64,000 bases of DNA from a virus (lineage: Duplodnaviria; Caudoviricetes): positions 14,432 to 78,431 of the IMG/VR virus record IMGVR_UViG_3300001598_001791. One strand, written 5' to 3'. Below, in pieces: positions 45,029-63,567 of this stretch (its first letter is position 1; the number at the start of each line of letters is the position of its first letter). The translations under genes were made by a program, and so were the position numbers. The notes under the pieces are model-generated. The model saw only the letters and a program-made list of their open reading frames with translations. It was not told the origin of the DNA and searched no databases.

Positions 45029-45140
45029 GTTGTGTTAAAATAATTATACAGGGTAGGGACTACCCGGTGAGCCTGTTGATACTGTGCCAGTTATGGCACT
45101 TGAGCAGGAATGGTCTTAGCTTTAGCTGAGACCTAGTTCA
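45029..45140 (+). ncRNA. Probable TnpB omega-RNA scaffold / IS right end
   Basis: GGGTAGGGACTACCCGG...GCCTGT...GCAGGAA...GGTCTTAGC-TTTA-GCTGAGACC-TAGTTCA, as at IS605 right ends. Confidence 0.6.
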
Positions 45141-45161
45141 AATATAGTAAAGGAGATCTTT

Positions 45162-45488
45162 ATGAATATAGAAAAGAAAATTCCATTAATTGTTTGCCCT
45201 GTTTGCGGACAAACCTATGTTCCATCTGAAGTATTTATCCCTGAATCATTTTTTGGAGATCAAAAAGAAGTTATTAAAGATAACCAAGGAAAAGTTGAAT
45301 TCTACACTGGGGATGACATGGATCTTGAAGAAGAATATATTTGTGATGGATGCGGTACTAAATTGAAGATAATTGCAGATTTAAGTTTTGATGTTATACC
45401 TGAAGATAAATTTGATGATGAATATACTGTTGAAATAAATAAACCTGCTAAATTAAAACTAAGAGAAACCGACTTATTTAATGATTAA
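45162..45488 (+). CDS. Hypothetical zinc-binding protein
   Basis: CPVCG...CDGCG. Confidence 0.6.
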   Translation: MNIEKKIPLIVCPVCGQTYVPSEVFIPESFFGDQKEVIKDNQGKVEFYTGDDMDLEEEYICDGCGTKLKIIADLSFDVIPEDKFDDEYTVEINKPAKLKLRETDLFND

Positions 45489-47160: not shown

Positions 47161-47216
47161 TTTACTTCCTTTTTATTTTGTTGTATAATGATAAGGTAGT
47201 AATTAGAGAGGTAGAT

Positions 47217-47759
47217 ATGAGTGATGTATTGGTTATTCATCTAGATGACAGAAGCACAGATTTTTTAAAATTAATCTATAAAGATAAAAATTATGATATT
47301 ATAAATGATGGTAATATGAGAAATAGTGAGTTAGTAGATCAAATTAGAAATCATAATAAAATTATTATGATGGGTCATGGTCTTCCTTATGGGTTAATTA
47401 ATGTAAATAGAGGACCTAAAAATTTGAATTTATTTTTTATCAATGACTCACATGCCGACTTATTAAGAGAAAAAGAAACTGTTTCTATATGGTGTTTCTC
47501 AGATGAGTATTTTAGTAGAAATACTATTAAAGGTTTTCATACAGGGATGATCATATCAGAAACTTCAGAAGAACGTATGGTTTTAAATTATGAACCACTT
47601 AATAAAGATGAATTGCTTGATAATATGAATTTTATGGCAACTATATTTAGTGAATGTATTGAGTTATCTCCTGAAGAGATAAGGTCTTATATGCTAACTA
47701 ATTATAATAGACATGATCCTGTTAGTGAATTTAATAGAAAAAACATGATTGTTATTTAG
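47217..47759 (+). CDS. Hypothetical protein
   Basis: Start at ATG 47217 (RBS GAGG) after promoter 47161-47189. Confidence 0.6.
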   Translation: MSDVLVIHLDDRSTDFLKLIYKDKNYDIINDGNMRNSELVDQIRNHNKIIMMGHGLPYGLINVNRGPKNLNLFFINDSHADLLREKETVSIWCFSDEYFSRNTIKGFHTGMIISETSEERMVLNYEPLNKDELLDNMNFMATIFSECIELSPEEIRSYMLTNYNRHDPVSEFNRKNMIVI

Positions 47760-47771
47760 TAGGTGAGATAG

Positions 47772-48542
47772 ATGTTAGAAGATGTATATAAAAGTTATAG
47801 AAAACTTGCAGATGAGGTAAGTTGGAAAAAGTATAATATCAATGAATTATTTTTTAAAACAATAGAATATGAAAATACTGATTTGTATGAAAAATACTAT
47901 GCAGGTGTTATTTGTAGAGTATGGGGTTATTCTGGTAAAGTGTTTAGATCAGTTAACCGTCATATACCATTTGATCAATGTTATGATATTGTAATAGATG
48001 CAGTAAATTATGTGTTATCTAAAAGAGTTTGGGAAAGTGAGAATAGTTCACTATATGGTGATAAATCAGCCCCTGATAAAGCTTTTCATATTGCCCTTAG
48101 GAGACAGAGATCCATTATCCTTTCTAGCCTTACAGCTGATAAAAGGCAGTCTAATTTTAATAATTTAAGTATAGATTCTTTTAGAGAAGAATATAATGAT
48201 GCCTCTGATGGGTTACTAATATTCAATCAAACAGAATACTCAGATAATACTAAAATCAGAAGTTTAATAACTCATTATTTTGATCATAATTATCCTGTAA
48301 AAGGTTTTGCTTTAGATTTCATTTGTTTTGGGAATTCAGATCAATTTTCTACTGATAGAATAATCAAACAAATAAAGGAAATAAATTGTAATGAATATAA
48401 TTATTACAACTTAGTTTACGGGATATCAAAACAACAATATAATAGATATGTTAATGAAATTAAACATACTAGTAAACAGATTATAAATTATCAAATAAAG
48501 GGTTTACTATATGAGTTAAGAAAGGAGTATGTTAATGCGTAA
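47772..48542 (+). CDS. Hypothetical protein, possibly a divergent sigma-like transcription factor
   Basis: Helical; CYDIVIDAV...KRQSNFNNLSID loosely resembles sigma region 2; weak. Confidence 0.3.
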   Translation: MLEDVYKSYRKLADEVSWKKYNINELFFKTIEYENTDLYEKYYAGVICRVWGYSGKVFRSVNRHIPFDQCYDIVIDAVNYVLSKRVWESENSSLYGDKSAPDKAFHIALRRQRSIILSSLTADKRQSNFNNLSIDSFREEYNDASDGLLIFNQTEYSDNTKIRSLITHYFDHNYPVKGFALDFICFGNSDQFSTDRIIKQIKEINCNEYNYYNLVYGISKQQYNRYVNEIKHTSKQIINYQIKGLLYELRKEYVNA

Positions 48543-49359
48543 TATTGATGCAAGATTTTTTGTAATTCATGGGTGGATGATGAGTAAATTAGGTTTATGC
48601 GGATGTGATCGTGACGTTTATTCAATTATATATGGTTTCTCACAAGATGGTGAAAGTGACTATCATGGTAGTATCGGATATCTATCAGATCTCACTCAAT
48701 ACTCAAAAAGATCATGTGGTAACTCGTTAAAATTTCTAACTGACTCAAAATTAGTAATTAAATACTGGGAACCTAATGCTAAGTCTGCTACCTATAAAAT
48801 TAATTTTAATATTATTAATAATTTCAATAATGAAGATAATTCTGGCAATGAAGATACTTCCTCTCTACCAGAAAATACTTCTGGTGAACAAGAAGATACT
48901 TCTGGTATAACGGAAAATACTTCCTACAATAATATAGATATAAAAAATAATAATAAAATTATAAATAATACTGATTCTCTTTTAGAAAATAATAAATATA
49001 TTAAAGAAAAGAGTTTACAAGAGACTGTCGATGAGGTGATTGATTTTATGAACACTACGTGCCATACCTCATTTAAGAAAACAACCAATGGGACTAAGCG
49101 GAAAATTAAATCACTAATAAAACAAGGTTTTAGTTTACAAGATATGAAAAATGTTATATTATGTAAATATGAACAGTGGGGAAAGAAACCTATTAAATTT
49201 AGTAATGGCCAAATGAGTGATGCCTATCTAAGGCCAGATACTTTATTCAGTGATAAATTTGAAAGTTATCTATCTGAATACCAAAAGAATACCCCAAAAC
49301 AACGTTCAAATGAAAATAATATCGATATCAATAATATAGAAATAATTGATGAGTATTAA
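48529..49359 (+). CDS. Replication initiator (N-terminal wHTH, conserved phage C-terminal domain)
   Basis: YSIIYGFSQDG wHTH; YLRPDTLFSDKFESYL; upstream of the loader. Confidence 0.7.
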   Translation: MLMRNIDARFFVIHGWMMSKLGLCGCDRDVYSIIYGFSQDGESDYHGSIGYLSDLTQYSKRSCGNSLKFLTDSKLVIKYWEPNAKSATYKINFNIINNFNNEDNSGNEDTSSLPENTSGEQEDTSGITENTSYNNIDIKNNNKIINNTDSLLENNKYIKEKSLQETVDEVIDFMNTTCHTSFKKTTNGTKRKIKSLIKQGFSLQDMKNVILCKYEQWGKKPIKFSNGQMSDAYLRPDTLFSDKFESYLSEYQKNTPKQRSNENNIDINNIEIIDEY

Positions 49360-49370
49360 AGGAGGTAACC

Positions 49371-50072
49371 GTGGATAGTAGTAAATGTTGGTTAAAGAAT
49401 GATTGCAGTTGTGTTGATTGTGATTCTCCTAGTTGTATAAGGTTAGTAAAATTAGATTATTTATATACTAATGCCAATATCTCACTGAATCAAAGATATG
49501 ATGTAAAATTAAAAATAATTTCAGGTGTGAATAATGTTGATAGTGAATCATTTAAACGATTAGGAGATATCAAATCTGATATAAAAAATTTTATTTCAAA
49601 AGGTAATAACCTATATCTATACTCAGAAACAGTTGGTAATGGTAAGACTGCGTGGGCAATAAAACTATTACAATCATATTTTAATAATATTTGGCCAACA
49701 ACTGGGCTGAAATGTAAGGCATTGTTTATTCATGTTCCACAGTTTTTATTAGCTTTAAAAGATAATATCTCAGAAAAAAGTGATTATATCCAACATATTA
49801 AAGAAAATATCTTAGATTGTGACCTGGTGATTTTTGATGAGTTAACTACTAGAGCAGGTACCAACTTTGAGTTAGATCATTTACTTTCGTATATAAACAC
49901 TCGTTTATCAACAGGTAAGTCATGCATCTATACTTCAAATGTAAAACCTGATGAGTTGTCTTCATATTTAGGTGAGAGATTGTCTAGCAGAGTAGTTAAC
50001 CTATCTGAAGTAATCGAATTAAGAGGGTCTGATATGAGAGCTTTATCAAAAGAATGGAGAAATAATAATTAG
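49371..50072 (+). CDS. DnaC/IstB-like helicase loader ATPase
   Basis: GNGKT, LVIFDEL, IYTSN, RLSSR. Confidence 0.8.
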   Translation: MDSSKCWLKNDCSCVDCDSPSCIRLVKLDYLYTNANISLNQRYDVKLKIISGVNNVDSESFKRLGDIKSDIKNFISKGNNLYLYSETVGNGKTAWAIKLLQSYFNNIWPTTGLKCKALFIHVPQFLLALKDNISEKSDYIQHIKENILDCDLVIFDELTTRAGTNFELDHLLSYINTRLSTGKSCIYTSNVKPDELSSYLGERLSSRVVNLSEVIELRGSDMRALSKEWRNNN

Positions 50073-50074
50073 TT

Positions 50075-51376
50075 ATGATTACACAAATTCAAACATTGAA
50101 TTATTTATTATCTAGAGGTGATTCATCTTTATTAACAACGAGAGGTTTATCATTAGATCATTTCCCTCAATTAAGAAATGAATTTAAATTTATTTTAAAT
50201 CATTTTAATAAATATAACCAATTACCTGATATGTCTACTTTCTTAAAGACATTTCCTGATTTTGAAGTTATTGAAGTAAATGAGTCTATAGATTATTTGA
50301 TCTCTGAGTTAAATAAAGAAAAGACAGAAACTAACATTATTGAGTTAGTAAACAAAATTAAAGAACCTTTATTAAAAGGTGAAACAGATAAAGTAACTCA
50401 AATGATTTCCTCTTTCTCAGATAAGTTAACATCTAGTAAACATCTAGAAGCAGTTGATATTTTAAATGATATTTCTAGATATGATTCATATATTGATAAA
50501 TGTAATGACTTCAATAAGTATTATATATCAACTGGATTTAGAGAACTTGATGAGATCATCGGTGGATGGGATAGAAATGAAGAATATGCTACTATCGCTG
50601 CACGTTCAGGTACTGGTAAGACATGGATTTTATTGAAAAGTATTACTGCTTCAGTTGAAAGGGGTTTAAGAGTAGGATTATTCTCAGGTGAAATGAGTGT
50701 CAATAAGGTTGCATATAGATTTGATACTCTCATGGGGCATATCTCTAATGGTAAATTAACTCATGGTAATATTGAAGCTGCTGTTGGTTATAAAAGATAC
50801 TTAGATAATTTAAAAGATAATCATAAAGGTAGTTTATATGTGTTAACTCCTAATATGGTTGATGGTTTGTGTGGTGTAAACGCCCTAAGAGGATTCGTTG
50901 AAAAATATAATCTTGATATTTTATTTATTGACCAACATTCTTTATTACAGGATGATAGGCATGGTAGAACTACTTTTGAGTCTGCTGCTAACATTTCAGG
51001 TGATCTAAAACAATTACAAGTAAGAAAAGGAATTCCTATTATAACTGTATCTCAACAAAACAGATCATCAATAGATGAAGGAAAATTCGCCGGAACAGAA
51101 AATATTTCTAATTCAGATAAGATCTCACAAGATAGTACTGTTATTTTATTTTTATCTACTAAAGATGATATTATGACAATTCATATAGCCAAAAGTAGAG
51201 ATGGTGGTTCATTTAAACAAATTAAATATGCAGTTGACTTTGATAAAGGAAATTTCACTTATATACCAGAGGAGAAAGATCTAGAAGATGAAGATTCATT
51301 AAACGAAGCTAATGAATTATTGAATAAATATTCTCCGACAAACAACAATGAGGAAAGGAACGATATATTTAAATAA
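50075..51376 (+). CDS. dnaB: Replicative DNA helicase (DnaB-like)
   Basis: ARSGTGKT, FSGEM, LFIDQ, SQQNR, IAKSRDG. Confidence 0.88.
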   Translation: MITQIQTLNYLLSRGDSSLLTTRGLSLDHFPQLRNEFKFILNHFNKYNQLPDMSTFLKTFPDFEVIEVNESIDYLISELNKEKTETNIIELVNKIKEPLLKGETDKVTQMISSFSDKLTSSKHLEAVDILNDISRYDSYIDKCNDFNKYYISTGFRELDEIIGGWDRNEEYATIAARSGTGKTWILLKSITASVERGLRVGLFSGEMSVNKVAYRFDTLMGHISNGKLTHGNIEAAVGYKRYLDNLKDNHKGSLYVLTPNMVDGLCGVNALRGFVEKYNLDILFIDQHSLLQDDRHGRTTFESAANISGDLKQLQVRKGIPIITVSQQNRSSIDEGKFAGTENISNSDKISQDSTVILFLSTKDDIMTIHIAKSRDGGSFKQIKYAVDFDKGNFTYIPEEKDLEDEDSLNEANELLNKYSPTNNNEERNDIFK

Positions 51377-52341
51377 TGATAGTAGTAAGAAATAGAACCT
51401 TAACAGAAGATGCATTTACTATCTTAAAAAAAGTTCAATCTGAAATTTCTAATGGTAAATTGGATATTGTAAGAAGGTCTAGTTCATCAGATATTATGAT
51501 AACGTGTCCAAAACACAGTAATGGCCATGAATCAAGGCCATCCTGTTTTATTAGAAATGATGATGGTGTTGGAAATTGTTTTACTTGTGGACTTAAAGGC
51601 CCTCTACAAAATTTTATAGCTGAGTCAATGGATATTTCTATTTCTAAAGCTGAAGAATGGCTTATTTCTAATTTTGGTGGTGACTTTACTCACAGAGATA
51701 TTGTTTTCCCTGATATTACCATCTATAAAAATTCAGATATCATCATGGATGAGTCAGTTCTAGAATCATTTGAGAATTATCACCCTTATATGTCAATGAG
51801 AAAACTTACCCCAGAGGTAATATCAAAATTTCAAATCAAATATGATCCAAAAACTGAGTGTTTGGTATTCCCAGTTAGAGATTATCTAGGCAAATTAAGA
51901 TTTTTAACAAGAAGATCAGTAAATAATAAAAAATTTATTATCGATAAAGAGGCTAATAAAAAATATATTTATTTACTGGATAATGTTTATAGAAATAATT
52001 ATAAAGAAGTATACGTAGTAGAATCTCAGATTAACGCTTTAACTTTAGAAGGTTGGGGGTATCATGCTGTTGCTTTATTTGGGGCAGGAGCTCCCTCAGA
52101 ACAAATTAAAGAATTAAACAAAACTGGAGTTAATCACTTTATATTGGCACTCGATAATGATCCTGCAGGTATTAAAGGTACAAAGAAACTATGTGAGTAT
52201 ATATACAGAAATAAATTAGTTGACGTAGTTATTTTTAATGATAACAGAGATGTTAATGATCTTTCAAAAGAAGAGTTTTCATCACTTAAACAAATAGATC
52301 GGTATGAATTTATAAATAAAAATAGTTTACAATTGATATAA
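51376..52341 (+). CDS. dnaG: DNA primase (zinc finger + Toprim)
   Basis: CPKH...CFTC; VVESQINAL; LALDNDPAG; DVND. Confidence 0.85.
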   Translation: MIVVRNRTLTEDAFTILKKVQSEISNGKLDIVRRSSSSDIMITCPKHSNGHESRPSCFIRNDDGVGNCFTCGLKGPLQNFIAESMDISISKAEEWLISNFGGDFTHRDIVFPDITIYKNSDIIMDESVLESFENYHPYMSMRKLTPEVISKFQIKYDPKTECLVFPVRDYLGKLRFLTRRSVNNKKFIIDKEANKKYIYLLDNVYRNNYKEVYVVESQINALTLEGWGYHAVALFGAGAPSEQIKELNKTGVNHFILALDNDPAGIKGTKKLCEYIYRNKLVDVVIFNDNRDVNDLSKEEFSSLKQIDRYEFINKNSLQLI

Positions 52342-52413
52342 TTTGTTGTATAATTATATCGTAATTTAATATTACCTAAGAATTTTAGATATGTGGAAAG
52401 AGAGGTGCCCATA

Positions 52414-53097
52414 ATGGGTTATGTTACAAGAAAAGAATACTTAGAATTACAAGCAAATAAAGAAAAGAAAAAAACTGAAGGACAAAGCAGTACTAGATCA
52501 CTTTGGAATTTCAAATTAAAAGATGATGGTGATGAAAGCATCGTACGATTCTGCTACTCAGATCCATCTCAATTTAATATTATTACAGTTCATCCAGGTA
52601 CGGCAGAAGATCATTACAAGAAAATTAATTGTTTAAATGATTTGAAAAATGGAATTACTGATTGTCCTTTATGCGCAGCTGGTGTTAAAGTTCAAAACAG
52701 ATTTTACGTAAAAATGATTGAATATGTTAGAAATGAAGATGGAACAATTACTCCATATGCTAGAGTATGGGATAGACCAGCTAAGTTTATGGATACTTTA
52801 GTTAACTTATTTACCGAGTATGGTGATATTAGTGAATGTGTTTTTAAAGTAAAACGTAGAGGTAAAGCTGGTGATATGCAAACAGATTATGATATTATGT
52901 TTGGGAACCCACAAGTTTACAATGCACAATTATATCCAAAAGATTTCTCAGCATTTGATAATTATGATTTAATTGGGACTAACGTTTTAAATAAAACAAA
53001 AGAAGAGTTAGAAGTAATAGTTAAAAATATGGTTGGAGATACACCTAAAACTCAACAACAATCAATTAATCCACAACCAAGAACAGTCGTATACTAA
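52414..53097 (+). CDS. Single-stranded DNA-binding protein (gp32-like)
   Basis: FKLKDDGDESIVRF, CPLC, RVWDR, KVKRRGKAGDMQTDY. Confidence 0.65.
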   Translation: MGYVTRKEYLELQANKEKKKTEGQSSTRSLWNFKLKDDGDESIVRFCYSDPSQFNIITVHPGTAEDHYKKINCLNDLKNGITDCPLCAAGVKVQNRFYVKMIEYVRNEDGTITPYARVWDRPAKFMDTLVNLFTEYGDISECVFKVKRRGKAGDMQTDYDIMFGNPQVYNAQLYPKDFSAFDNYDLIGTNVLNKTKEELEVIVKNMVGDTPKTQQQSINPQPRTVVY

Positions 53098-53103
53098 AAT
53101 AAA

Positions 53104-53132
53104 TAGGGTGGAGAATATCCACCCTAATTTTT
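53104..53132 (+). terminator. Hairpin / terminator between SSB and polymerase genes
   Basis: TAGGGTGG...CCACCCTA followed by ATTTTTT. Confidence 0.6.
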
Positions 53133-53151
53133 ACTAGGAGGAAATATTATA

Positions 53152-54795
53152 ATGCCAATTATCCAAGAGAGTTTATTTGATTCATTTAGTGTTGATATGG
53201 ATAATACTAAAAATATTTTAACCAAATTAAAGTCACCTAAAAAGGTAAAAGAAGTAACTGTTGAAAAACAATTATCATCAAACGATGTTCCTTTTGATGA
53301 AAAATTAAGATTAGTAACAACTGAAGTAAACCGCATTTTGGGCCATTTCAAAGATGATACTATCTGCATCTATGATTATAGTGAATTAGAAAAATATATT
53401 GATAAGGCAATTCAAAATGGTGTTATTTCAGTAGATACAGAAACTATTGGTACTCGTGATGATATTGATAAACCTGCTACTGATGCGTATACTTGTAAAT
53501 TAGCTGGACCATGCCTTTATACACCGGGTATGAAAAATGCTTATATTCCAATAAACCATGTAGATCCTTATACTAATATTCGTTTAGAGAATCAATTATC
53601 AGAAGATCAGTTAACTGTCCAATTTAAAAGATTAGTTAATAATAAGGTAAAGGTAATTTATCATAATGGTAAATTCGATTATAAAGTATTATATTATACT
53701 TGTGGTGTTAAATTACCTATTTACTGGGATACTATGATCGGTGCTCAGATACTAAATGAAAATGAACAAGCAGGCCTTAAGTTTCAATATAAAGATAAAA
53801 TTAATCCAGAACAAGAGAAATATAATATTGAGAAATTATTTAACGTAGAAATGTTTCCTAAATACCCACCTGAATTGTTTGCTTTATATGCTGCTACTGA
53901 TGCCTATGAAACATATAAATTATACGAATATCAGAAGAGTCAATATGAAAAACGGGGAAACGAGAGACTATACAATTTATTTTTAAATATTGAGATGCCT
54001 GTAGTAACAGTTGTCTCTGAGATGGAAATACGTGGAGTAGGTCTTGATAATGAATTTGCACAAAGATTAAGCAAAAAATTCCATTTGAAACTTGATGATA
54101 TTAATCACGCTATTGAAGTTGAAATGGGTAAATATAGAGAGATAATTTCTGAGTGGAGATCTTCGTCTTCAGCAAATTTCCATCCGACCAAAAATGGTAA
54201 ACAACAGAAATCTATGAATGAACAGTTATCAGATCCAATTGAATTGACTTCATCAATTCAATTAGGAATATTCTTATATGATATTCTTCAAGTATTAAAG
54301 GTTGATAAAGACGGTAAAAAAGTTGTTGATGAAGCAACATTACTTATTATAAAAGATAAATTACCATTAATTAATTTAATCCTAAGGAAAAGAGAATATG
54401 AAAAATATCTTGGTACTTATATTGACGCGATACCATTGGTTGCTAGCCCAAGAGATGGTCGAATTCACCCAAAATTTAATCAACTAGGTCGAGAAGATAA
54501 AAATGTTGTTACCGGAAGATTTAGTTCAACTTCACCAAATTTCCAAAACATCCCAGCCAGAGGTCAAATAACTTCAGTAAGGTGTATGTTTGTTCCTACT
54601 ATAAATTATAATGAATTTAATAAACAAAATAATGGGTTATATGAGATACCTGTTGAAGAAGAATGTTTAATGGCTGATGGCTCATATAAATGGGTATCAG
54701 AACTGCAAGTTGATGATATACTCGATGGCGGTGAAATAGTTAAAAGTATTGGTAAAAGTACAACAGGTAGATTAATTAGAGTGGAGGTAGCTTAA
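53152..54795 (+). CDS. polA: Family A DNA polymerase, N-terminal part (3'-5' exonuclease, thumb, start of palm) with a Hint-like C-terminal appendage
   Basis: Exo DTET, HNGKFD, YAATDA; TGRFSSTSPNFQNIP; VRCMFVP, then LMADGSYKWVSELQVDDIL and a stop. Confidence 0.88.
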   Translation: MPIIQESLFDSFSVDMDNTKNILTKLKSPKKVKEVTVEKQLSSNDVPFDEKLRLVTTEVNRILGHFKDDTICIYDYSELEKYIDKAIQNGVISVDTETIGTRDDIDKPATDAYTCKLAGPCLYTPGMKNAYIPINHVDPYTNIRLENQLSEDQLTVQFKRLVNNKVKVIYHNGKFDYKVLYYTCGVKLPIYWDTMIGAQILNENEQAGLKFQYKDKINPEQEKYNIEKLFNVEMFPKYPPELFALYAATDAYETYKLYEYQKSQYEKRGNERLYNLFLNIEMPVVTVVSEMEIRGVGLDNEFAQRLSKKFHLKLDDINHAIEVEMGKYREIISEWRSSSSANFHPTKNGKQQKSMNEQLSDPIELTSSIQLGIFLYDILQVLKVDKDGKKVVDEATLLIIKDKLPLINLILRKREYEKYLGTYIDAIPLVASPRDGRIHPKFNQLGREDKNVVTGRFSSTSPNFQNIPARGQITSVRCMFVPTINYNEFNKQNNGLYEIPVEEECLMADGSYKWVSELQVDDILDGGEIVKSIGKSTTGRLIRVEVA

Positions 54796-54805
54796 GTTCA
54801 AAAAG

Positions 54806-54928
54806 ATGATTAAAGATAATAAAGTTACCCGAGCCAAAAAAGAAGAAATAGATAAATATTTACAAGAAGGATACAAATTTGTATCCAAGAAAGGTGGTGA
54901 TATAAATGAAAAGTCTAAAAACTCGTAG
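54806..54928 (+). pseudogene. Possible endonuclease-gene remnant between the PolA halves (40 codons)
   Basis: MIKDNKVTRAKKEEIDKYLQEGYKF resembles C-terminal tails of homing endonucleases; position mirrors the GIY-YIG gene in the terminase. Confidence 0.35.
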
Positions 54929-56348
54929 AAGATATCAACTTCTAGGTGCAGACTTTTCCTAAAGTCTGCTCAGGAAGTTAAGGTATTTGCACAAACATGT
55001 GGTGATGAAACTCTATTGTCAGCCTTAATGGCCGGAAAAGATTTATATTCAGAGGTAGCTTCGAGTGTTTATAATATGCCATATTCTGAGTGTTGTGAAT
55101 TCAGACCAGATGGAACCTTTAATTTAGAAGGTAAACAACGACGAACTAAGTCCAAGAGTATTGTATTGGGTTAATTTTTGTACTCTTGGACTAAAACATT
55201 AAGCCCCTTCACATAGTAATATGTGTCGAATAACGATGTGAACTGCGATTACAAGCAGGTGTCTAAAGATAAGAACAAATAACTTTAGGCTAACGGCAAA
55301 AGCTTATTATTAAGTTAAAGTTAATGCCGTGCTAAGATTTTATTAACAGTGAAATAAAGTGTATCGACTAACTCTGATGAATGTAAGAGTGTAAGGTGGA
55401 GATGTTACCATTTGAAGCGCATCGCAACCATATGGTTGATGAAATAGTCAGTACTATTAGGAATAATAGATAATTACGTTAATGTATGGGCGTGGTACTA
55501 GTTCTATTGCAGAACAGATCAAATCTCACCCAGGCCCGGTAACCAAAGAGGATAAAGAGGAAGCAAAAGCTATTGTTGATAATTTCTTTACTAACTATCC
55601 CGGTGCTAAGGAATGGGTAGAAAGAATGCATAAACAAGCTAGAGAAATTGGGTATGTTGAAGATATTTGGGGTAGAAGAAGAAATTTACCTGATGCTTCC
55701 TTACCTAAATATACTTTTGAATCTATAGAGACAGACTCAAGTAGTTTTAACCCATTAATTGACTCACCTTTAGTTATAAAGGAAGTTAGCCAAAACATCA
55801 TTGATAAGTATTCTCAATTACTTGATAAAACATTTAGTGTGGAGAAAAGGAAAGAAATTATTGATGATGCCCTAAGATATGATAAAGTAAAAATTACTAA
55901 TAATAGTGGTTTTATTGCTCAAGCAGAAAGACAAAGCCAAAATTCACCAATACAGGGTGGAGCAGCTACTATGACAAAAATTGGTATGCGTGATATCCAC
56001 TTTGATAAAGAGTTAAATGACCTTGATCTTCACTTATTAATTCCTGTTCATGATGAAGTTATTGCTGAGGCTCCACTTTGGAATATTGAAGAAGCTAAGA
56101 AGAGAATGTTTTATCTAATGTGTAATGCTGGGAAACCTGAGTTTAAATTACCAATGAAATGTGATGGTGATGACTGGTCAAGATGGTATCTAGATGTTTG
56201 TGGACAACATATTAGAGATGAATATCAAGAAAGTATTAAGAGTGGGTGTGCTCCGGAAGTAGCTTTCCAAGATGTTTATGAGAATAATTGTGAATTTACA
56301 GAAGATCAGATAAAGTTAATTTTAGAAGATAATAAACGTGATGTTTAG
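54906..56348 (+). CDS. polA: Family A DNA polymerase, C-terminal part (motifs A, B, C; 375 aa from segments 54906-54959, 54968-55171, 55479-56348)
   Basis: RBS GGTGG; LLGADFS[8 nt]AQEVK (motif A); RTKSKSIVLG|LMYG (motif B across intron); AERQSQNSPIQG; VHDEV (motif C). Confidence 0.82.
54948..54969 (+). other. Stop-containing 8-nt insertion in a 9-bp hairpin within PolA motif A
   Basis: GCAGACTTT-TCCT-AAAGTCTGC; reading GAC TTT TCC TAA AG TCT GCT CAG GAA. Confidence 0.85.
55172..55478 (+). ncRNA. Group I intron in PolA motif B (307 nt, no ORF)
   Basis: Exon ends GGT, intron starts TAA and ends ATTACG; core GTGAACTGCG, AATGCCGTGCTAAG, TATCGACTA, GAAATAGTCAG; splicing gives VLG-LMYG. Confidence 0.85.
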
Positions 56349-56422
56349 TTTACAATATTCATTATATATGATAATATAGTTATGAAGATAAGAATATATT
56401 CTTGAGGAGGATTTTTACAGTT

Positions 56423-56949
56423 ATGAATATCGTTATATACGGTTGCGATAACTGTGGTTAAGTAAGACCACATTAGCAGAATTTCTAGAAGATGAGTTAT
56501 GCGGTAAACAAGTTCATAGCTTAGGTAATGTCTCGATTGAAAAACAGGTAGAATTTATGAATAATGAACTTTTACCAAAAGGAAGTACTTCTATTAAAAT
56601 ATTTGATAGATTCCCCATTATTGAAGAGGAAGTATATGGTAATCTTTTGCGTGGTGGAAGTAAATATGATTCAGACCCTGACTTCAAAAAAGAAATGTTA
56701 GATAAAATTGATTTATTTATCTACGCATACCCTGGATTACTATCAACTTTAAATTGGAATAACCGAGAACAGATGGATGGTGTAATTGAAAACGTAATTA
56801 AAATTATAAATGAGTATAATAAGATTACTTATAGTTTTATAACTGAAAGATCAGTTATTGAGTTTAATTATAATGAAGATCCTTATTATATGAAGATATC
56901 AAAAAAGATAAAGGAGTTTATTAATGAACACAATCGATGTGAAATATAA
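56423..56949 (+). CDS. dNMP (thymidylate-like) kinase, 173 aa, requiring removal of a 5-nt insertion at 56459-56463
   Basis: RBS GAGGAGG; MNIVIYGCDNCG[TAAGT]KTTLAEFL; FDRF motif; track ORF 56557 is only the distal part. Confidence 0.8.
56453..56472 (+). other. Stop-containing 5-nt insertion in a hairpin within the kinase P-loop
   Basis: TGTGGT-TAAGTAAG-ACCACA; reading TGT GGT TAA GT AAG ACC ACA. Confidence 0.85.
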
Positions 56950-57541
56950 TAATGACATAGATAGTTGGAATACCTTATTTAAGTTAGCTAGAGAACAATT
57001 TTTAAATTATGAAAAAATTGAGGGTATTGAAAATTGGGATGAATATGATTTCTCAATAGATTGCTCATCTGATCAAATGAAATTTAAAGATATGCTTCAG
57101 ATTAGATTTATTGAAGAATTAACAGAGTCATCAATTGCTTTACATGAATCAGAGGAACACTTCTGGGAAGAAATAGGTGATTCTTTAAATTTTTTCTTAT
57201 CAGCTATGATTATGCTTGGAGTTGATCTTGACTCAATGGAATCACCGGATCATTTTCTTTCGACATACTCACTGAGAATTGTTCCTGATCCAGATTCTTT
57301 TGGCCTATCAGCCTATACAGTAATTGAGTCAGTTGGTTACTTATGCAATTTATTAAAAAATAGACCTTGGGCACAAAGTAATTATTTAGTTTCTATGTAT
57401 GACTTTGATGAAAGACTTAGAAAGTTGTGGTGTATTTTCTGGGGGTTTATGGGTGATTTAGGTCTAATTAAAGAAAATGTATTCGAGATATTCTGAAAAA
57501 AATTTAAAGTAAATGAACATAGAATGTCAACAAATTATTAA
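56924..57541 (+). CDS. Dimeric all-alpha dNTP pyrophosphatase (dUTPase-2 / T4 gp56 dCTPase-like; 205 aa, code 4)
   Basis: EELTE, EEIGDSLNFF, KNRPW, W(TGA)KKFKVNEHRMSTNY. Confidence 0.7.
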
Positions 57542-57554
57542 AAGGAGTAGATAG

Positions 57555-58301
57555 ATGAGAACTTATAAAACTATTAGGGAATCACTTGATGAAACAGCTA
57601 GAGACCTTTTAGTCCGTGGGATTACTGTTGAATGCAAATCTTATCAAGATAAAATCCTTGAGGGGAATGACCGTTTCGTAAAGGAGTTAATGGGTGTTGA
57701 CTTTATGATCTCAAAACCTATGTTAGGTTGGAGAGAAGCAGTACAATACTTATTTAAAACTGATGAAGAAACAGATAAAATCCTTAAATATTGCGAACAA
57801 GAAATTAAAGATAGGACATCTGGTGAAATGCTAAATCCAGGTAATTCATATAAAATTAGAGGTGATTATTGGTCTAATTTCTTAGAAGGTAATAATAAAT
57901 TTAGTTATCAGTATGCAGAAAGATTGTGGACAAATAATCAATTTGGATCTGTAATTAATTGTTTAAGAAATGATCCAGGAACAAGACAAGCAGTATTATC
58001 GGTTTGGTACCCAGAATTAGATATGAATTCAGAAAAATTGGGTGGTGGTAATAGAATACCTTGTTCTTTAAATTACCAGTTCATGATTAGAAATAACCGA
58101 TTACATTGTATTTATCATATGAGAAGTTCTAATTTCTTTGAACATCTACCAATTGATTTAATTTGTGCTGCTGGGATGATGGATTATATTGTTAAACAAT
58201 TAAAAGATACTTACCCTGATTTACAGGTAGGAAGTCTTTCTTATCTCGGTGGGAGTTTGCACGGATTCCAATGGTCACTATCTAAATTCGTTTTATTTTA
58301 A
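57555..58301 (+). CDS. Thymidylate-synthase-fold enzyme, dCMP hydroxymethylase-like
   Basis: TRQAVL, catalytic PCSLNYQF, MRSSNFFEHLPID with Asp where ThyA has Asn (LPFN). Confidence 0.65.
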   Translation: MRTYKTIRESLDETARDLLVRGITVECKSYQDKILEGNDRFVKELMGVDFMISKPMLGWREAVQYLFKTDEETDKILKYCEQEIKDRTSGEMLNPGNSYKIRGDYWSNFLEGNNKFSYQYAERLWTNNQFGSVINCLRNDPGTRQAVLSVWYPELDMNSEKLGGGNRIPCSLNYQFMIRNNRLHCIYHMRSSNFFEHLPIDLICAAGMMDYIVKQLKDTYPDLQVGSLSYLGGSLHGFQWSLSKFVLF

Positions 58302-58303
58302 TT

Positions 58304-59134
58304 ATGATCTATTTAAAATATAAAGACTTTACTCAATTATATTATGAATTATCAAGATTTCCCTTAACCGATCCAAAATCAACAGATTTCTTTACTATAG
58401 GTGCATCAATTTATGTAAATAACTTAGTTATAGAAACTGAATCTCATGATCTAGTAGGGCCAGCTTCAGACTTAGGAAATTTTAATTATACCATTTCTAA
58501 GTGGACTACTCTTCTAAATAAGTATGTTGATCCAAAAGATTATAGTGACCTAAAAACACGTCTTACTTGGTCTACTTGTAAAACAGTTACTTTTAATTTT
58601 AAAATACATGTAGCCATGCCGACCGATACAGATCAAACTAAAAGTAGAGATTCTTGTATTATTGCTATGGTTTTTAGTAGAAATGGTACTAAAGGTAAAT
58701 GGACTCATGTAAATGTTTATTGGAGAGCCCAAGAGATATATCAGAAAGGTGCAGCCGACTGGATCTTACTGAATAGAATATTTGAAGACCTTCCTAATTT
58801 AGATTTAAAACACTATTGTTTTCATATAGCCCAGCCATTTTGGAGTACATTTAAACTATGTGAATTGATAGATAGCCCTTTATTTAGTGTTGAAGAATTT
58901 AAAGATTCATCCTCTTTTCTAGGTAGGAAATTATACGCTCATTACCTGAGATATTATGGGCCTGGTGCTGAATTATCCAATTTTCATGCGATAAGAAGAA
59001 AACAAGAAATGAAACTTAGTGGTAAAGTTAATAAATCAATTCCATTGGAATCATTGGTGTTACCTTCACCATTAAAAGAAGAATACGATTTAAAAACTAT
59101 TCCTACTGAAGTGATTCAAACATCACTTTGGTAG
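58304..59134 (+). CDS. Second, divergent thymidylate-synthase-fold-like protein
   Basis: SCIIAMVF...VNVYWRAQEIYQKGAADWILL parallels the PC...RS.D...N/D segment; weak, by eye. Confidence 0.35.
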   Translation: MIYLKYKDFTQLYYELSRFPLTDPKSTDFFTIGASIYVNNLVIETESHDLVGPASDLGNFNYTISKWTTLLNKYVDPKDYSDLKTRLTWSTCKTVTFNFKIHVAMPTDTDQTKSRDSCIIAMVFSRNGTKGKWTHVNVYWRAQEIYQKGAADWILLNRIFEDLPNLDLKHYCFHIAQPFWSTFKLCELIDSPLFSVEEFKDSSSFLGRKLYAHYLRYYGPGAELSNFHAIRRKQEMKLSGKVNKSIPLESLVLPSPLKEEYDLKTIPTEVIQTSLW

Positions 59135-59181
59135 TTTACATATACTAACTATGCTGATATAATTAAGATAAGGAGATAGAT

Positions 59182-59595
59182 ATGAAAGTAAAATTAATTA
59201 AATTTAATAACTTTATTAAAGAACCAAAACGTGAACATTATAATGACTCTGGGGCAGATGTTTTTGCTGCAGAAGACTGTGTTATTAAAGCACATTCAGT
59301 TTATGCAGTACCTTTAGGAATTGGTGTTGAATTACCAAATGGATATGACATGATCATTCACTGTAAATCAGGGTTATCAAAAAATGGAATCTGGTCTGCC
59401 AATGCTCCAATAGACTCAGGCTACAGAGGTGAAATTCATGCAATTCTTTATAATACAACCGAAAATGACTATGAAATCAAATCTGGTACTAAAGTTGGAC
59501 AACTAGTCATGAGACCTGTTATCTATTGTGATTTCGTTGATGAATTAGGTGAGGAGAGAAACACTGGTTCATTTGGGAGTACTGGCTTAAAATAA
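59182..59595 (+). CDS. dut: Trimeric dUTPase
   Basis: DSGADV, KSGLS, IDSGYRGEI, GQLV, GSFGSTG. Confidence 0.9.
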   Translation: MKVKLIKFNNFIKEPKREHYNDSGADVFAAEDCVIKAHSVYAVPLGIGVELPNGYDMIIHCKSGLSKNGIWSANAPIDSGYRGEIHAILYNTTENDYEIKSGTKVGQLVMRPVIYCDFVDELGEERNTGSFGSTGLK

Positions 59596-60071
59596 TGAAT
59601 AAAAAAGATTTATTCTATATGTCAGTAGCTGAGCTTACTGCTACTCAGAGTAAAGACCCAAACACTAAAGTTGGTTCTGTTTTAGTGAAAGATGGTAAGA
59701 TCTTATCAGTAGGTTGGAACGGACCACCAAGATCATTAAATGATTCAATAGTCCCATTTACCTGCAGAGATAGATCTAAGCCACTAAAAGAACAGAAATA
59801 TCCTTATATTTTACACTCAGAAGTTAATTCACTTTTAAATTACGCTGGACAATTAGATGATTTAAAAGATTCATCTCTTTACGTAACAGTGTTTCCTTGT
59901 CACAACTGTGCCTTGCAGATTATACAGGCAGGAATTAAAGAAATTTACTATTTAGAAGAGTATAAGGGAAATCCTGAATCTGATGAGATGTCAAAATATT
60001 TATTCGATATGACCGGAATTAGATATATAAAATTAGATAGACAGGGAGATAATTATGAAGATAGAAACTAA
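59595..60071 (+). CDS. dCMP deaminase
   Basis: SKDPNTKVG, HSEVN, PCHNC. Confidence 0.88.
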   Translation: MNKKDLFYMSVAELTATQSKDPNTKVGSVLVKDGKILSVGWNGPPRSLNDSIVPFTCRDRSKPLKEQKYPYILHSEVNSLLNYAGQLDDLKDSSLYVTVFPCHNCALQIIQAGIKEIYYLEEYKGNPESDEMSKYLFDMTGIRYIKLDRQGDNYEDRN

Positions 60072-61170
60072 AGAATTTAGACAAGCAAGTAGATTGATTT
60101 TGCAAGCCATCGATACTCAAGAGGTTTCATTATTCAATGAGACCTTAGAGTTAAAGGCTAGCGGTAACAAATTATTCTTAAATATTACTAATAGACAATA
60201 TTATGTTACAGTTACTTTTAATTTACAAAATGAAGAGAATTTCCACGCATCAGTAAATGCTAGTTTGTTTCTAAAACTAATAGATAAGATTACTACTGAT
60301 ACTATAGAAATCTTAATTGAGGGTAATTCAGTTAAAGTTGTCGGAAATGGTACTTATAAATTGCCTATTATATACAACAATGATTCTATGTTAGAGTTAC
60401 CAATTATCACATTGGATAATAAGACAGCAGAATTTGAAATATCAACTGATATTTTACAAAGTATTGTTTCTAACAACTCAAAGGAACTTCTCCGAGGTAT
60501 ACCAAACAGAGAAGCTCAAAAATATTATTATATAGATGAAAAGGGATGTATCACTTTTGTATCTGGTGCCTGTGTTAATTACTTTGAATTACCACAACCA
60601 ATTAAGATGCAACTTTCATCTAAAGTAGTTAAATTATTTAAATTATTTAAAGATACTGCATATGTTAAATTTTCTATGTTTCAAGATCCTATTAGTGATA
60701 ATATGATTCAAACAAAAGTTAAATTCACAAATGATAAAGTAGTCCTTATTGCTAAATTACCAAATTCATCACTTATTAATGATGTACCAGTTGATTCAAT
60801 CAGAAATATGTGTATGAAAGAATTCCCATATTCTCTAGTTTTAGATAAAAATCAATTATCAGCAGTTATTGATAGATTAAGATTATTTACAACTGAGAAA
60901 AATTATGGATATTTTGATTTTAGTAGAGATTCTTTGACAATTAGTGATTTCTCACGTGAGAACAAAGAGACTGTTTCTATTTCATCTGATTGTCCTACTT
61001 TAGAATCATATTCGGTTATTTTAAATTTAGATAACTTTAAATTAATTCTTGATGGATGTACTGAAGATTATATTACAATTTGTTTTGGTGATGGTAGATC
61101 AGTATTAGTAAAGAAACCAAATATTGCTGTCTCTGAATTGTTGCCTGAATTGAAATTTGTTAATGTATAA
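60055..61170 (+). CDS. Sliding clamp (bacterial beta-like)
   Basis: 371 aa, three-domain periodicity, ending LNLDNFKLILDGCTEDYITICFG; recognised by pattern only. Confidence 0.55.
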   Translation: MKIETKEFRQASRLILQAIDTQEVSLFNETLELKASGNKLFLNITNRQYYVTVTFNLQNEENFHASVNASLFLKLIDKITTDTIEILIEGNSVKVVGNGTYKLPIIYNNDSMLELPIITLDNKTAEFEISTDILQSIVSNNSKELLRGIPNREAQKYYYIDEKGCITFVSGACVNYFELPQPIKMQLSSKVVKLFKLFKDTAYVKFSMFQDPISDNMIQTKVKFTNDKVVLIAKLPNSSLINDVPVDSIRNMCMKEFPYSLVLDKNQLSAVIDRLRLFTTEKNYGYFDFSRDSLTISDFSRENKETVSISSDCPTLESYSVILNLDNFKLILDGCTEDYITICFGDGRSVLVKKPNIAVSELLPELKFVNV

Positions 61171-61176
61171 TATTAC

Positions 61177-61653
61177 ATGGATAGAGGAAAAGAGTGGGAG
61201 AAAAGAGTAAAACTTGACTGAGAGAAAACGGTCGGTGATTCTTTTCTTTATAGATTATTTGATACATCAATGGGTTATAAAAACATAGCCAATGTAAGTG
61301 ATTATATTGGCTATAAATATCCTATAATGTATTGTATTGAGTCAAAGTGTCATTTGGGAAATACTTTCCCCTTCTCTGCCTTTCGTCAATATGAGAAGAT
61401 GGTTCCTTATATTGGAATAACTGGCTTGAAATTAGGTGTCGTGTTGTGAATGATAGATCACCATAAAGTATTATGGATACCTATTGAAACTTTTAAAAAG
61501 ATTAAAGATGAAGGCGGTAAATCTTTTAATATAAAAATGTTAAGTGATCCCAATTATGAAATTTTAGATTTAATGGCAAAAGACCTCAGGACATATATGT
61601 CAGTTGACTATAATAACTTAGTTAATTATTACAAGGAGAATAACATTGAATAA
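61177..61653 (+). CDS. Holliday junction resolvase (RecU-like, 158 aa, code 4)
   Basis: RGKEWE, SDYIG, CIESK, RQYE; 2 TGA. Confidence 0.7.
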
Positions 61654-62185
61654 TATTACTGGTGATGAAATTAGAAAAATGAGCGAATCTCTCCATAATG
61701 ATTTTAGATACTTAAATGAAGAATGTGATAAGATTGCTACTGAATATTCACGAGATCTAGATGAAAAAGTTGACAGAATTACCTGGTACTTAAAAGCTAC
61801 TAAGGATAATAATTTAGACTTTGATGTACCGTCTTTACAGCGGATGGCTATGGAATTATCGGCAATTATCTATTATGCAAATGATAGGTTAGAGAAACTT
61901 CAAATCCTCAGTGACATGGCCGAGATTAAATATCGTGATAAATATAATGAATCTTACTTATCAAAGCAGGGTGCTAAAAAACTTGAAGATAGAACTTTAA
62001 CTAAAGATCAAGTTAAAAGTATGGCTGAGCAAGAGTCATTGCCAGAAGAATTAATTTCATTTATATATTCACATGCAGCTAAGATATTAAAGGGTAAAAT
62101 AGATTCTGCCTATGAGTTATTGAAGTCAGTATCTAAATCTTTATCTGCTGAGATTACACAAATGCAACAATTTTCAAATAAATAA
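61646..62185 (+). CDS. Hypothetical coiled-coil protein
   Basis: 179 aa, helical. Confidence 0.55.
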   Translation: MNNITGDEIRKMSESLHNDFRYLNEECDKIATEYSRDLDEKVDRITWYLKATKDNNLDFDVPSLQRMAMELSAIIYYANDRLEKLQILSDMAEIKYRDKYNESYLSKQGAKKLEDRTLTKDQVKSMAEQESLPEELISFIYSHAAKILKGKIDSAYELLKSVSKSLSAEITQMQQFSNK

Positions 62186-62204
62186 AAACTAAGGGAGTAT
62201 CTAA

Positions 62205-62981
62205 ATGAGTAAAGTAAGTTATAGTAAAGTTAGTACTTTTTCACAATGTCCATTTTTATATAAATTAAAATACATAGATCATTTAAAACCAATCTTTGAT
62301 GAAAAACCAGATAACGCTTTACATTTAGGTACCTGTTTGCATGAGGCTCTTGAGTCAAGAGATATTGAGAAAGCTATTGACCTATATAAATCTAAATATC
62401 AATCATTAGATGATAATAATGAGATTGAAATTTTAAAATTAAGAACTATTCTCCCAAAAGCATTGTCACAAATTCCACAAGGTGAGTACGAATATCAAAT
62501 AAATATCTCTGATGAATTTGTTGGTTATATTGATATGTTAGTCAAGGTCGATGATGGTGTGTATGATCTTTATGACTTCAAGTATGCTACTAACTCAAAA
62601 AGATATGAGTCATCTGCTCAAGTTCACTTGTATAAATATTACTATGAAAAAACTACTAATAATAAAATTAGAAATATTTATTATGCTGTTATACCTAAGT
62701 GTAAGGATACATTAAGTACTCTTGATAAAGATAAACTAGTTAATAAAATAACTAATTCTTATTCAAAGAAGGATGTTGAATTTATTAATATAGAATATAA
62801 TATTGGAAAAGTATATCAGTTTTTAGCACAGAAATCAATGCTTGATGAGGCAAAAGTTTTCGAGAAAGTTTATAGCACAAAATGTGCCTGGTGTCAATTC
62901 CAAAAGTATTGTAGATCAAATGGCGAGGATACTTCTGAGATAATCAAAAAACAATCCATAGAAGAAACATCCTTGTTTTAG
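62205..62981 (+). CDS. PD-(D/E)XK exonuclease (Cas4/AddB-like)
   Basis: SYSKVSTFSQCP, GTCLH, GYIDML, YDFK, QVHLY, CAWCQFQKYC. Confidence 0.8.
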   Translation: MSKVSYSKVSTFSQCPFLYKLKYIDHLKPIFDEKPDNALHLGTCLHEALESRDIEKAIDLYKSKYQSLDDNNEIEILKLRTILPKALSQIPQGEYEYQINISDEFVGYIDMLVKVDDGVYDLYDFKYATNSKRYESSAQVHLYKYYYEKTTNNKIRNIYYAVIPKCKDTLSTLDKDKLVNKITNSYSKKDVEFINIEYNIGKVYQFLAQKSMLDEAKVFEKVYSTKCAWCQFQKYCRSNGEDTSEIIKKQSIEETSLF

Positions 62982-63039
62982 TTTACTTATTTATCATTTA
63001 ATGATATTATTATTAATGTAAATAAAGAGGTAACTAGCT

Positions 63040-63465
63040 ATGATGATATACAACATATTAATACGAAATTACACTGATGGTATCCAGAGACAATTCTATT
63101 TATCAGCTGAATCTCAAGAAGCTGTTATTAAACGAGCTTGTTATACGTATAATGTTATACCTGAACAAATAACTGTTGTTGAGTATTATAAAGATCTAAA
63201 TCAATTTGAATATGATCCTGTTCCAATTAAGGTTGTGTCTAAACAAATTAGTATTAATGATAAGGCATCTGAAATGTTTTATGGTGCAATTAGAAAAAGG
63301 GGAAAGAAGAAATTAGATTATATTAATAAATATAATTTTTCTGAAATCAAAATATCTTCACCTGATGATCTAGCTAAACTTATTGGTAAATATAAGCAGG
63401 TAAAGTGTTATTGGGAATCTGGTGATACCAGAGGTGAACATCAATACTATGCCTTATACAAATAA
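63040..63465 (+). CDS. Hypothetical protein
   Basis: 141 aa after promoter 62982-63010. Confidence 0.6.
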   Translation: MMIYNILIRNYTDGIQRQFYLSAESQEAVIKRACYTYNVIPEQITVVEYYKDLNQFEYDPVPIKVVSKQISINDKASEMFYGAIRKRGKKKLDYINKYNFSEIKISSPDDLAKLIGKYKQVKCYWESGDTRGEHQYYALYK

Positions 63466-63567
63466 AGATTGTAGGTGATTATAATGGATAAAGATAAAAT
63501 TCTAGAATGGATTCAAACCTAAATTAAGAAATCTGATAAAAAATAATGAGAGGGGAAATTAGCTATA

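Follow-up and report, generated by a model that had tools for sequence, protein, structure and literature searches.

Candidate short ribosomal hops over stop codons in the split DNA polymerase gene and a neighbouring kinase-like gene of a Caudoviricetes phage

The window analysed here, a stretch of 64,000 nucleotides (positions 14,432 to 78,431 of IMG/VR record IMGVR_UViG_3300001598_001791; Caudoviricetes), represents the terminal 64 kb of a 78,431-bp single-contig phage genome with a G+C content of 31%. Its replication block (about 45100-63500) contains a gene for a family A DNA polymerase (PolA), distantly related to the polymerases of Clostridium phage phiCTP1 and Streptococcus phage Dp-1, followed by a gene for a P-loop (deoxy)nucleoside monophosphate kinase-like protein, the ATG of which lies 75 nt downstream of the polymerase end. 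The reading frames of both genes are broken within a catalytic motif by a few nucleotides beginning with a stop codon, i.e., by candidate coding gaps that the ribosome may hop (programmed translational bypassing). The features of the two loci are as follows (L numbers designate loci of related phages; SD, Shine-Dalgarno sequence; ORF, open reading frame):

53152..54795, + strand: ORF of the PolA N-fragment, comprising the 3'-5' exonuclease and the first part of the polymerase domain (Pfam DNA_pol_A_exo1, DNA_pol_A); stop TAA
54601-54792, + strand: C-terminal tail of the N-fragment, its last 64 codons
54796..54905, + strand: spacer of 110 nt between the polymerase halves, including most of a 40-codon ORF (54806-54928)
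54893..54908, + strand: SD GGTGGTGA and ATG (54906) of the polymerase C-fragment, as read from the sequence
54906..54959, + strand: start of the C-fragment, 18 codons to G-A-D-F-S, including the catalytic Asp of motif A
54937..54979, + strand: polymerase hairpin with an inner 9-bp stem (54948-54956 / 54961-54969), the loop TCCT and an outer helix (54937-54943 / 54972-54979)
54957-54959, + strand: putative take-off codon TCC, in GAC TTT TCC
54960..54967, + strand: candidate 8-nt coding gap, composed of TAA (54960-54962), AG and the putative landing codon TCT (54965-54967); followed by GCT CAG GAA
54968..55171, + strand: C-fragment from motif A (A-Q-E) into motif B, with 85-90% amino acid identity to L002-L004
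55172..55478, + strand: intervening sequence of 307 nt in motif B, preceded by T, beginning with TAA and with a final G
55479..56348, + strand: last polymerase exon with motif C (V-H-D-E); Pfam DNA_pol_A; stop TAG
56404..56458, + strand: start of the kinase gene with SD GAGGAGGA, ATG at 56423 and 12 codons ending in G-C-D-N-C-G
56453..56472, + strand: kinase hairpin TGTGGT / ACCACA of 6-7 bp (56453-56458 / 56467-56472)
56456-56458, + strand: putative take-off codon GGT, in TGT GGT
56459..56463, + strand: candidate 5-nt coding gap TAAGT, in which TAA (56459-56461) shares its last A with the putative landing triplet AGT (56461-56463); followed by AAG ACC ACA
56464..56949, + strand: remainder of the kinase-like gene, 161 codons beginning with K-T-T-L (PHROG 761, thymidylate kinase, E 2e-5); the ORF is also conserved in L005

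No match to GenBank phages was returned by Megablast for this region, and only one polymerase was seen in the 78-kb genome. Pfam DNA_pol_A matches lie on both sides of the polymerase break, and the three coding pieces after 54906 form a stop-free sequence of 375 amino acids when gap and intervening sequence are skipped. In the kinase gene, the gap splits Walker A between Gly and Lys (intact relatives: G-x-D-N-x-G-K-[ST]-T). A first-pass annotation had described two insertions, each starting with TAA directly after a sense codon, containing TAA(A)GT, measuring 2 mod 3 nt and located in catalytic motifs; this description is borne out (8 nt at 54960-54967; 5 nt at 56459-56463). The frame resuming at 54968 has no start codon near the gap and does not include the catalytic Asp. 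Termination followed by reinitiation at the polymerase gap was rejected, since the landing triplets of the various relatives are not starts (except TTG in L034) and the Asp would be stranded on an 18-residue peptide. Downstream of the gap, the polymerase of the window is under purifying selection (dN/dS 0.08-0.16 versus intact relatives).

Related loci were gathered using three queries (the N-fragment, a last-exon alignment and a degenerate DNA pattern), yielding many independent contigs of uncultured phages, among them L001 with an N-fragment 80% identical to that of the window. Searches with single proteins returned three loci for the last polymerase exon and none for the kinase, so that alignment queries were needed. 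Insert sizes were fixed by the intact relatives (D-F-S-A-Q-E-V-K in L001-L005; G-C-D-N-x-G-K-S-T in L003/L004). Polymerase inserts were found in 22 distinct variants of 5, 6, 7, 8, 9, 10, 12, 14 or 15 nt and in any reading frame, all of them beginning with TAA, TAG or TGA; 21 of the 22 are located directly 3' of the Ser codon in D-[FY]-S, and the insert of L047 two codons downstream. The degenerate pattern allowed TGG at the position of the stop and left the remaining insert, including its last triplet, free. All 29 viral matches to this pattern had a true stop and fell within split polA genes. Among 596 Gb of bacterial genomes, 28 matches were obtained: two represent phage contigs binned with metagenome-assembled genomes (of a Lachnospiraceae and an Acholeplasmatales member), and the other 26 are chance matches, nine with TGG and none with a final Ser codon. 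TAG is the most frequent gap-initiating stop (about 14 of 23 variants, L177 included); the usual gene stop in these A+T-rich phages is TAA. In a quick tree of the last exon (quick search, SH-aLRT support only), the insert-bearing rows all fall into one clade of 43, with intact rows interspersed. Judged from this comparison, the inserts are not random damage, the identical codon being reused in related phages, and the recurrence of the same breaks in independent contigs agrees with the earlier view that two independent random mutations are unlikely. Further short stop-initiated inserts, which the first-pass annotation had proposed to look for in relatives, thus exist at both sites (22 polymerase variants and a second kinase lineage, L005). 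The signature it had drawn from the two window inserts did not hold up: relatives use TAA, TAG or TGA, lengths of 4-15 nt and any frame, TAA(A)GT is not conserved, and this motif as well as the common length of 2 mod 3 are coincidences of the window genome.

What the polymerase variants do have in common points to the ribosome. Every variant has its stop immediately 3' of the take-off codon, so that a codon slow to decode would occupy the A site at take-off, and in each of them the canonical motif is regained when the insert is skipped. The last triplet is a Ser codon TCN in 17 of the 22 variants versus none of the 26 bacterial chance matches (Fisher p 6e-9; as the variants share ancestry, this and the other p-values overstate the support). 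The pairs of take-off and landing codons include TCG to TCG, TCT to TCT, TCG to TCA, TCT to TCA and TCG to TCT; the window itself has TCC to TCT, two synonymous Ser codons which, by the established wobble rules, a single tRNA can decode. Four of the five other landing triplets agree with the take-off codon at two of three positions, exactly or via third-position wobble, that of L047 at one. Homologous 7-nt inserts differ in the identity of the stop, and a stop is always kept. TAG is used as Gln inside the polymerase (e.g., Q-Q-E as CAA TAG GAA) by L045 and L046 only, often at Gln positions of the window's protein, and the inserts of these two begin with TGA or TAA; in the lineages with TAG-initiated inserts, the polymerase gene contains no other in-frame TAG. 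In the window, the stop at both gaps is TAA. The gap-initiating stop hence agrees with each phage's own genetic code.

Conventional recoding, i.e., frameshifting by -1 or +1 or, where the insert of a relative is in frame, stop-codon readthrough, would add one to five residues to motif A or Walker A. The downstream frame is indeed open across the gap in every case, and the window genes would yield D-F-S-L-K-S-A-Q and G-L-S-K-T-T. However, a slippery heptamer is absent, and different relatives require a frame change of 0, +1 or +2 (readthrough, +1 or -1) at one and the same site; as all three frame relations are represented among the inserts, one common frameshift or readthrough event does not fit every variant. 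The Ser codon as last triplet would be left unexplained. The Asp-Glu spacing in motif A of family A polymerases and the Gly-Lys spacing in the P-loop G-K-[ST] are invariant and, by general structure-function knowledge, would be broken by the extra residues. Conventional recoding is accordingly regarded as very unlikely.

The polymerase insert of the window lies in a stable hairpin (-20.5 kcal/mol, z -3.4, 1 of 200 shuffles equally good), and the earlier placement of both inserts in hairpins is upheld; at the kinase site the structure is weak (z -1.5), and the kinase gap of L005 has an equivalent stem (TGTGGT / ACCAC, z -1.8). Across the polymerase sites, 48-nt windows of insert-bearing sequences fold better than those of intact ones (Mann-Whitney p 0.006 for energy, 0.02 for z). 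The form of the hairpin differs among lineages; in the usual form, the outer helix joins the L-V-G to the Q-Q-E codons, and the inner stem is built with the insert as an inverted copy of the Asp-Phe codons. Ahead of the gap, a basic N-terminal peptide (M-K-K-S-I-K-x-R...) is conserved at the start of each new C-fragment ORF. Hairpin and peptide may both contribute to bypassing.

Location in hairpins would also be in accord with removal of the gaps at the RNA level prior to translation, be it as micro-introns or through a trans-acting factor that excises them and ligates the ends, and group I introns are abundant in the window genome and its relatives. Group I introns are characterized by a conserved P1-P9 core, a U preceding the 5' splice site and a terminal G. 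At exactly the polymerase gap site, between the Ser and Gln codons, L063 contains an intervening sequence of 243 nt that ends in G, forms a P1 helix with the exon and yields 40 bits in a full-length match to RF00028 (Rfam gathering score 50), i.e., a probable group I intron, and L055 contains an untyped one of ~1.1 kb; the first-pass proposal to check orthologues for group I introns at this position thus proved fruitful. Elsewhere in its polymerase gene, L034 has a group I intron which reaches the Rfam threshold (73 bits). The intervening sequence in motif B of the window is absent from L002-L004 (I-V-L-G-L-M-Y-G at this position) and matches RF00028 with 21 bits (E 0.002; no match in a larger search), probably representing a divergent group I intron below the Rfam threshold. 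The short inserts themselves, however, are at 4-15 nt too small for any known ribozyme core, and neither their sequences nor their lengths are conserved. The conserved properties, a code-valid stop and a synonymous landing triplet often differing in the wobble base, are of the kind read by ribosome and tRNA; they constitute a ribosome-level rather than an RNA-processing signature and argue against the minimal introns considered in the first-pass annotation. An RNA ligase or splicing endonuclease was sought among the local genes. Taken together, removal at the RNA level is considered highly improbable. The polymerase inserts were likewise rejected as group I introns or their remnants, since 5-15 nt are too short and the take-off codons end in C, G or T. 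As to the related idea that they are the residue of lost introns, the inserts travel with homing-endonuclease cassettes and not with introns.

This association with cassettes is evident from the split of the gene. The polymerase is split in all 15 insert-bearing lineages first examined versus 6 of 65 lineages with an intact motif (p 8e-12). In these 15 lineages, an in-frame stop is found 18-42 codons, and an SD with a start codon 17-24 codons, upstream of the break; an SD and ATG at this distance recur in nearly all insert-bearing relatives. Between the polymerase halves, L012 has a gene for a GIY-YIG endonuclease (2743-3465; Pfam 7e-9), L035 one for a LAGLIDADG endonuclease (Pfam 4.5e-10), and L031 (1298-2233), L047 and L053 have HNH-like genes (H-H-I-I-P...A-H motif recognized by eye, weak NUMOD3 matches); the ORF in L106 is without assigned family. 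The most direct comparison is provided by a single metagenome with cassette-bearing L034/L035 (6-nt gap) and unsplit, intact L036/L038: in flanks of 96% identity, 84 nt are replaced by 646 nt, and homology restarts at the first codon after the landing triplet. On the strength of these sequences, the polymerase gap is the 3' border of a mobile homing-endonuclease cassette. In the window, the spacer between the halves is probably a remnant of a lost homing-endonuclease gene; between its 40-residue ORF and a motif inside the HNH-like ORFs, a weak similarity was seen (tiny database, E 0.05). As a particularity of L031, the C-fragment ORF (2225-2290) has no ATG, GTG or TTG and apparently starts with ATT, judged from the position behind the SD and the conserved K-K-S-V-K peptide.

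The cassette would also account for the tail of the N-fragment, which is missing from the near-identical but unsplit L036. Tails of about 45-65 residues (type G-W-K-x-V...G-D-x-I) occur in those cassette-bearing relatives whose gap region was examined; the tail of the window is 76% identical to that of L001, and counterparts end the N-fragment in other insert-bearing relatives:

L012, 2440-2682: PolA tail
L031, 990-1226: PolA tail
L047, 651-887: PolA tail

No Pfam or PHROG family was found for the tail. The unsplit polymerase of L005 holds a tail-like stretch in frame, which may reflect secondary re-fusion. A split intein was considered for the tail and dropped in view of this in-frame stretch and of a C-fragment without intein C-terminal motif. 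Because L063 and L055 carry intervening sequences exactly at the gap site, the motif-A site is a hot spot for mobile elements. From this and from the T4 precedent, we infer that endonucleases preferentially target motif-A DNA and that the gap, by interrupting this target, would protect its carrier.

The kinase gap is far more restricted in its distribution. A homologue with an intact motif matches PHROG 761 (thymidylate kinase, E 2e-7); no Pfam family was found for the kinase. Among ~25 kinase lineages from viral and metagenome scans, the gap is present only in the window and in one 139.9-kb contig (L005, identical with L109 and L121); the exact gap pattern retrieved only this contig from the viral contigs, and of 20 kinase relatives contributed by the metagenome scan, only the same contig was not intact. 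Its gap is 4 nt long (TAGC after GGT, with the stop TAG). The body of the L005 kinase gene has 80-95% DNA identity to intact L120, while the ~70-nt 5' module (SD, 12 codons and gap) instead resembles that of the window (62-80% identity in 40-nt windows, versus about 50% in the rest of the gene). Since body and module differ in their affiliation, a mosaic breakpoint is placed at the kinase gap, suggesting the gap module to be mobile.

It is for the kinase that death of the gene is most plausible as an alternative: one or both genes could be recent pseudogenes, or the breaks assembly errors, and the kinase gap is indeed known from two lineages only, in a gene for a possibly dispensable enzyme. 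Yet the two kinase gaps differ (TAAGT versus TAGC) while a stop is retained in both, as is an AGY triplet preceding the Lys codon (AGT in the window, AGC in L005), and the L005 kinase shares 97% protein identity with intact L120 at a dS of 0.50 (dN 0.03, dN/dS 0.06). The polymerase is the only one seen in the 78-kb genome, dozens of contigs, derived from many samples, retain a like break, and the downstream ORFs are under purifying selection. Dead genes or assembly errors are therefore assigned a very low probability.

The reading that fits all comparative data is translational bypassing, already listed as a candidate in the first-pass annotation; both inserts are probably short coding gaps hopped by the ribosome. 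The polymerase hop is very likely to be real, and the kinase hop is plausible, somewhat better than an even chance but less secure. Translation of the polymerase C-fragment would begin at ATG 54906 and, at codon 18, place peptidyl-tRNA(Ser) on UCC while UAA occupies the A site; instead of termination, unpairing of the tRNA would follow, the mRNA would slide by 8 nt, and after re-pairing with UCU decoding would restart at GCU, yielding the exact motif A (D-F-S-A-Q-E). Following removal of the downstream intron, a C-fragment of 375 residues would be formed and cooperate with the separately made N-fragment. A now degenerate homing-endonuclease cassette would have split the polymerase, adding the tail to its first half and the basic N-terminal stretch to the second, and probably interrupts the target of its own endonuclease in motif-A DNA. 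In the kinase, peptidyl-tRNA(Gly) on GGU would hop 5 nt over UAA to AGU, decoding restarting at AAG and restoring G-x4-G-K-T.

Several points weigh against this reading. Take-off and landing codons are matched at the polymerase site but only marginally at the kinase site, where GGT and AGT, or AGC in L005, match at two of three positions. The kinase case amounts to two lineages sharing one ~70-nt module, its hairpin was equalled by 18 of 200 shuffles, and no endonuclease gene is found between polymerase and kinase, or near the kinase, in any relative. At the polymerase site, the landing codon is base-paired inside the full hairpin of the window, and the endonuclease gene is gone in the window, the assignment of a remnant being weak. 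Furthermore, short stop-hops measured in E. coli are usually inefficient (PMC5009743), for which reason sufficient output of polymerase has to be assumed.

The first-pass annotation had gone further in proposing a recoding system gating DNA synthesis, i.e., a dedicated regulatory switch in which release-factor or tRNA availability sets the output of polymerase and kinase. Both enzymes serve DNA synthesis, and with a stop occupying the A site at take-off in either gap, hop efficiency should follow the termination rate, as in the mechanism known from T4 gene 60; such a dependence on termination efficiency is mechanistically expected. In addition, TGA is recoded in late genes of the window phage. 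On the other hand, the two hops are uncoupled, L005 combining a kinase hop with an intact and unsplit polymerase, the polymerase gap co-varies with the mobile cassette and not with gene function, and close relatives replicate with uninterrupted genes. Co-occurring tRNA or release-factor genes, for which the first pass had suggested a search, were not found: the genome has no release-factor gene, and ARAGORN detected no tRNA gene in its whole 78 kb, a phage-encoded suppressor tRNA being thus not evident. A dedicated switch is hence unlikely. It is similarly doubtful that the stop-hops, beyond being scars which the ribosome tolerates, were co-opted as a timer in this phage with its TGA read as Trp in late genes, the two TAA-hops tying output of polymerase C-fragment and kinase to release-factor activity; in that case, the condition of the host termination machinery would set the level of DNA synthesis.

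With respect to the genetic code, many late, structural and mobile-element genes of the window phage use TGA as a sense codon, as revealed by an ORF map with UAG and UAA as stops (e.g., 43454-44005 with five TGA codons, 35033-39376 and 41363-43192). A conserved Trp of the IS200 TnpA is written TGA (alignment to PDB chains 2ec2 and 2f4f), and the sequences indicate that TGA is decoded as Trp in late genes. In the replication block, TGA is absent from most ORFs. When only TAA and TAG are taken as stops, the + strand of the 78-kb genome tiles into long ORFs with no further junction of the gap kind, in agreement with the earlier statement that comparable breaks are lacking elsewhere; automated scans of ORF junctions mostly exposed in-frame TGA sense codons and were too noisy to decide this alone. 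The one in-frame candidate pursued, the TAG at 44006, was rejected as a stop-hop, as it marks the boundary between two ordinary genes of a mobile element:

43454-45028: IS200/IS605 element with TnpA (Y1_Tnp, 3e-31) and TnpB (OrfB_IS605, Cas12f1-like TNB domain)

TnpA and TnpB of this element share one frame and are separated by the single TAG. Further mobile features of the window are five RF00028 group I intron matches (63-78 bits) within 4.4 kb (11556-15881), which break up one gene, and a weak Intein_splicing match (E 8e-5, under the Pfam cut-off) in the ORF at 3490-4446. A terminase fragment gave no match to PDB sequences. The kinase-like gene forms a module (56423-58301) with genes for a MazG-type pyrophosphohydrolase (PHROG 12184) and a protein of thymidylate-synthase fold (Pfam 1e-8), which is syntenic 3' of the polymerase in most relatives and may represent a nucleotide-modification cassette.

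Natural utilised bypassing is known from few systems, i.e., T4 gene 60 with its homologues, the byps of yeast mitochondria and, as a candidate, phiHau3. The same systems were found by a full-text literature search, which returned no description of stop-hops in PolA motif A, and according to a review from 2016 no natural in-frame stop-hop was known (PMC5009743). The present loci would offer a natural series of more than 20 gaps of 5-15 nt, in all frames and with three stops, at one fixed codon of an essential enzyme, together with a second site in the same genome. Such a series renders the rules of short hops testable (distance, stringency of the landing codon, roles of hairpin and nascent peptide), and it would explain the frameshifted appearance of polymerase genes in many uncultured gut and rumen phages, which annotation pipelines should not label as pseudogenes.

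Synthetic stop-hops in E. coli, as related in PMC5009743 and PMC10732093 from Weiss 1987, involve re-pairing at +5 and +6 over a stop; they are artificial and inefficient, and the TCT-TAG-TCT of L037 has the same geometry. The byps of Magnusiomyces capitatus mitochondria measure 27-55 nt, have an unused codon in the A site and are scattered over many genes (PMC5009743). They likewise comprise many short inserts that are jumped, with take-off and landing codons in some cases agreeing at just two of the three positions, similar to the kinase gap, but are mitochondrial, longer and scattered, whereas the polymerase gaps are tied to one conserved codon. For the terminase of Streptomyces phage phiHau3, bypassing of two 10-nt inserts was proposed, with junction-peptide evidence from E. 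coli (PMC10732093). The two cases have in common that short coding gaps interrupt the gene of an essential phage enzyme, that the RNA is locally structured, that the A-site codon is slow to decode and that short-range bypassing is a candidate; in phiHau3, however, the rare sense codon UUA acts as trigger, a tie to the developmental state of the host being proposed, and there is neither an endonuclease cassette nor a split gene.

Closest is the gene 39/mobA/gene 60 arrangement of T4 and its homologues (Huang 1988; Bonocora 2011), in which an essential replication gene is likewise split by a homing-endonuclease gene, mobA being a pseudogene in T4 itself. There, the insert ends at or just after the landing codon, and insert-encoded extensions, swapping of endonucleases and wobble-matched take-off and landing codons are described (bioRxiv 10.1101/2022.08.31.505936). 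The polymerase cassettes have all of these counterparts: an endonuclease gene between the gene halves (in relatives), the gap as 3' border, cassette-encoded C- and N-terminal extensions on the halves, different endonuclease types swapped in, a gap soon after the second ORF start, a stop directly after the take-off codon, a stem-loop at take-off, and matched take-off and landing codons sometimes differing only in the wobble base; the UAG stop of gene 60 is also the commonest in the polymerase gaps. Differences concern the interrupted gene (PolA motif A versus topoisomerase), the length of the gap (5-15 versus 50 nt), the take-off codon (17-24 versus 46), the many length variants including in-frame ones, and the evidence, which for the polymerase gaps is comparative; homology to the T4 elements (50-nt gap, topoisomerase, MobA) is not detectable. 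The polymerase cassette hence appears to work like the T4 gene 60 cassette but outside that family, which would extend the logic of "homing endonuclease plus bypass" beyond the T4 topoisomerase.

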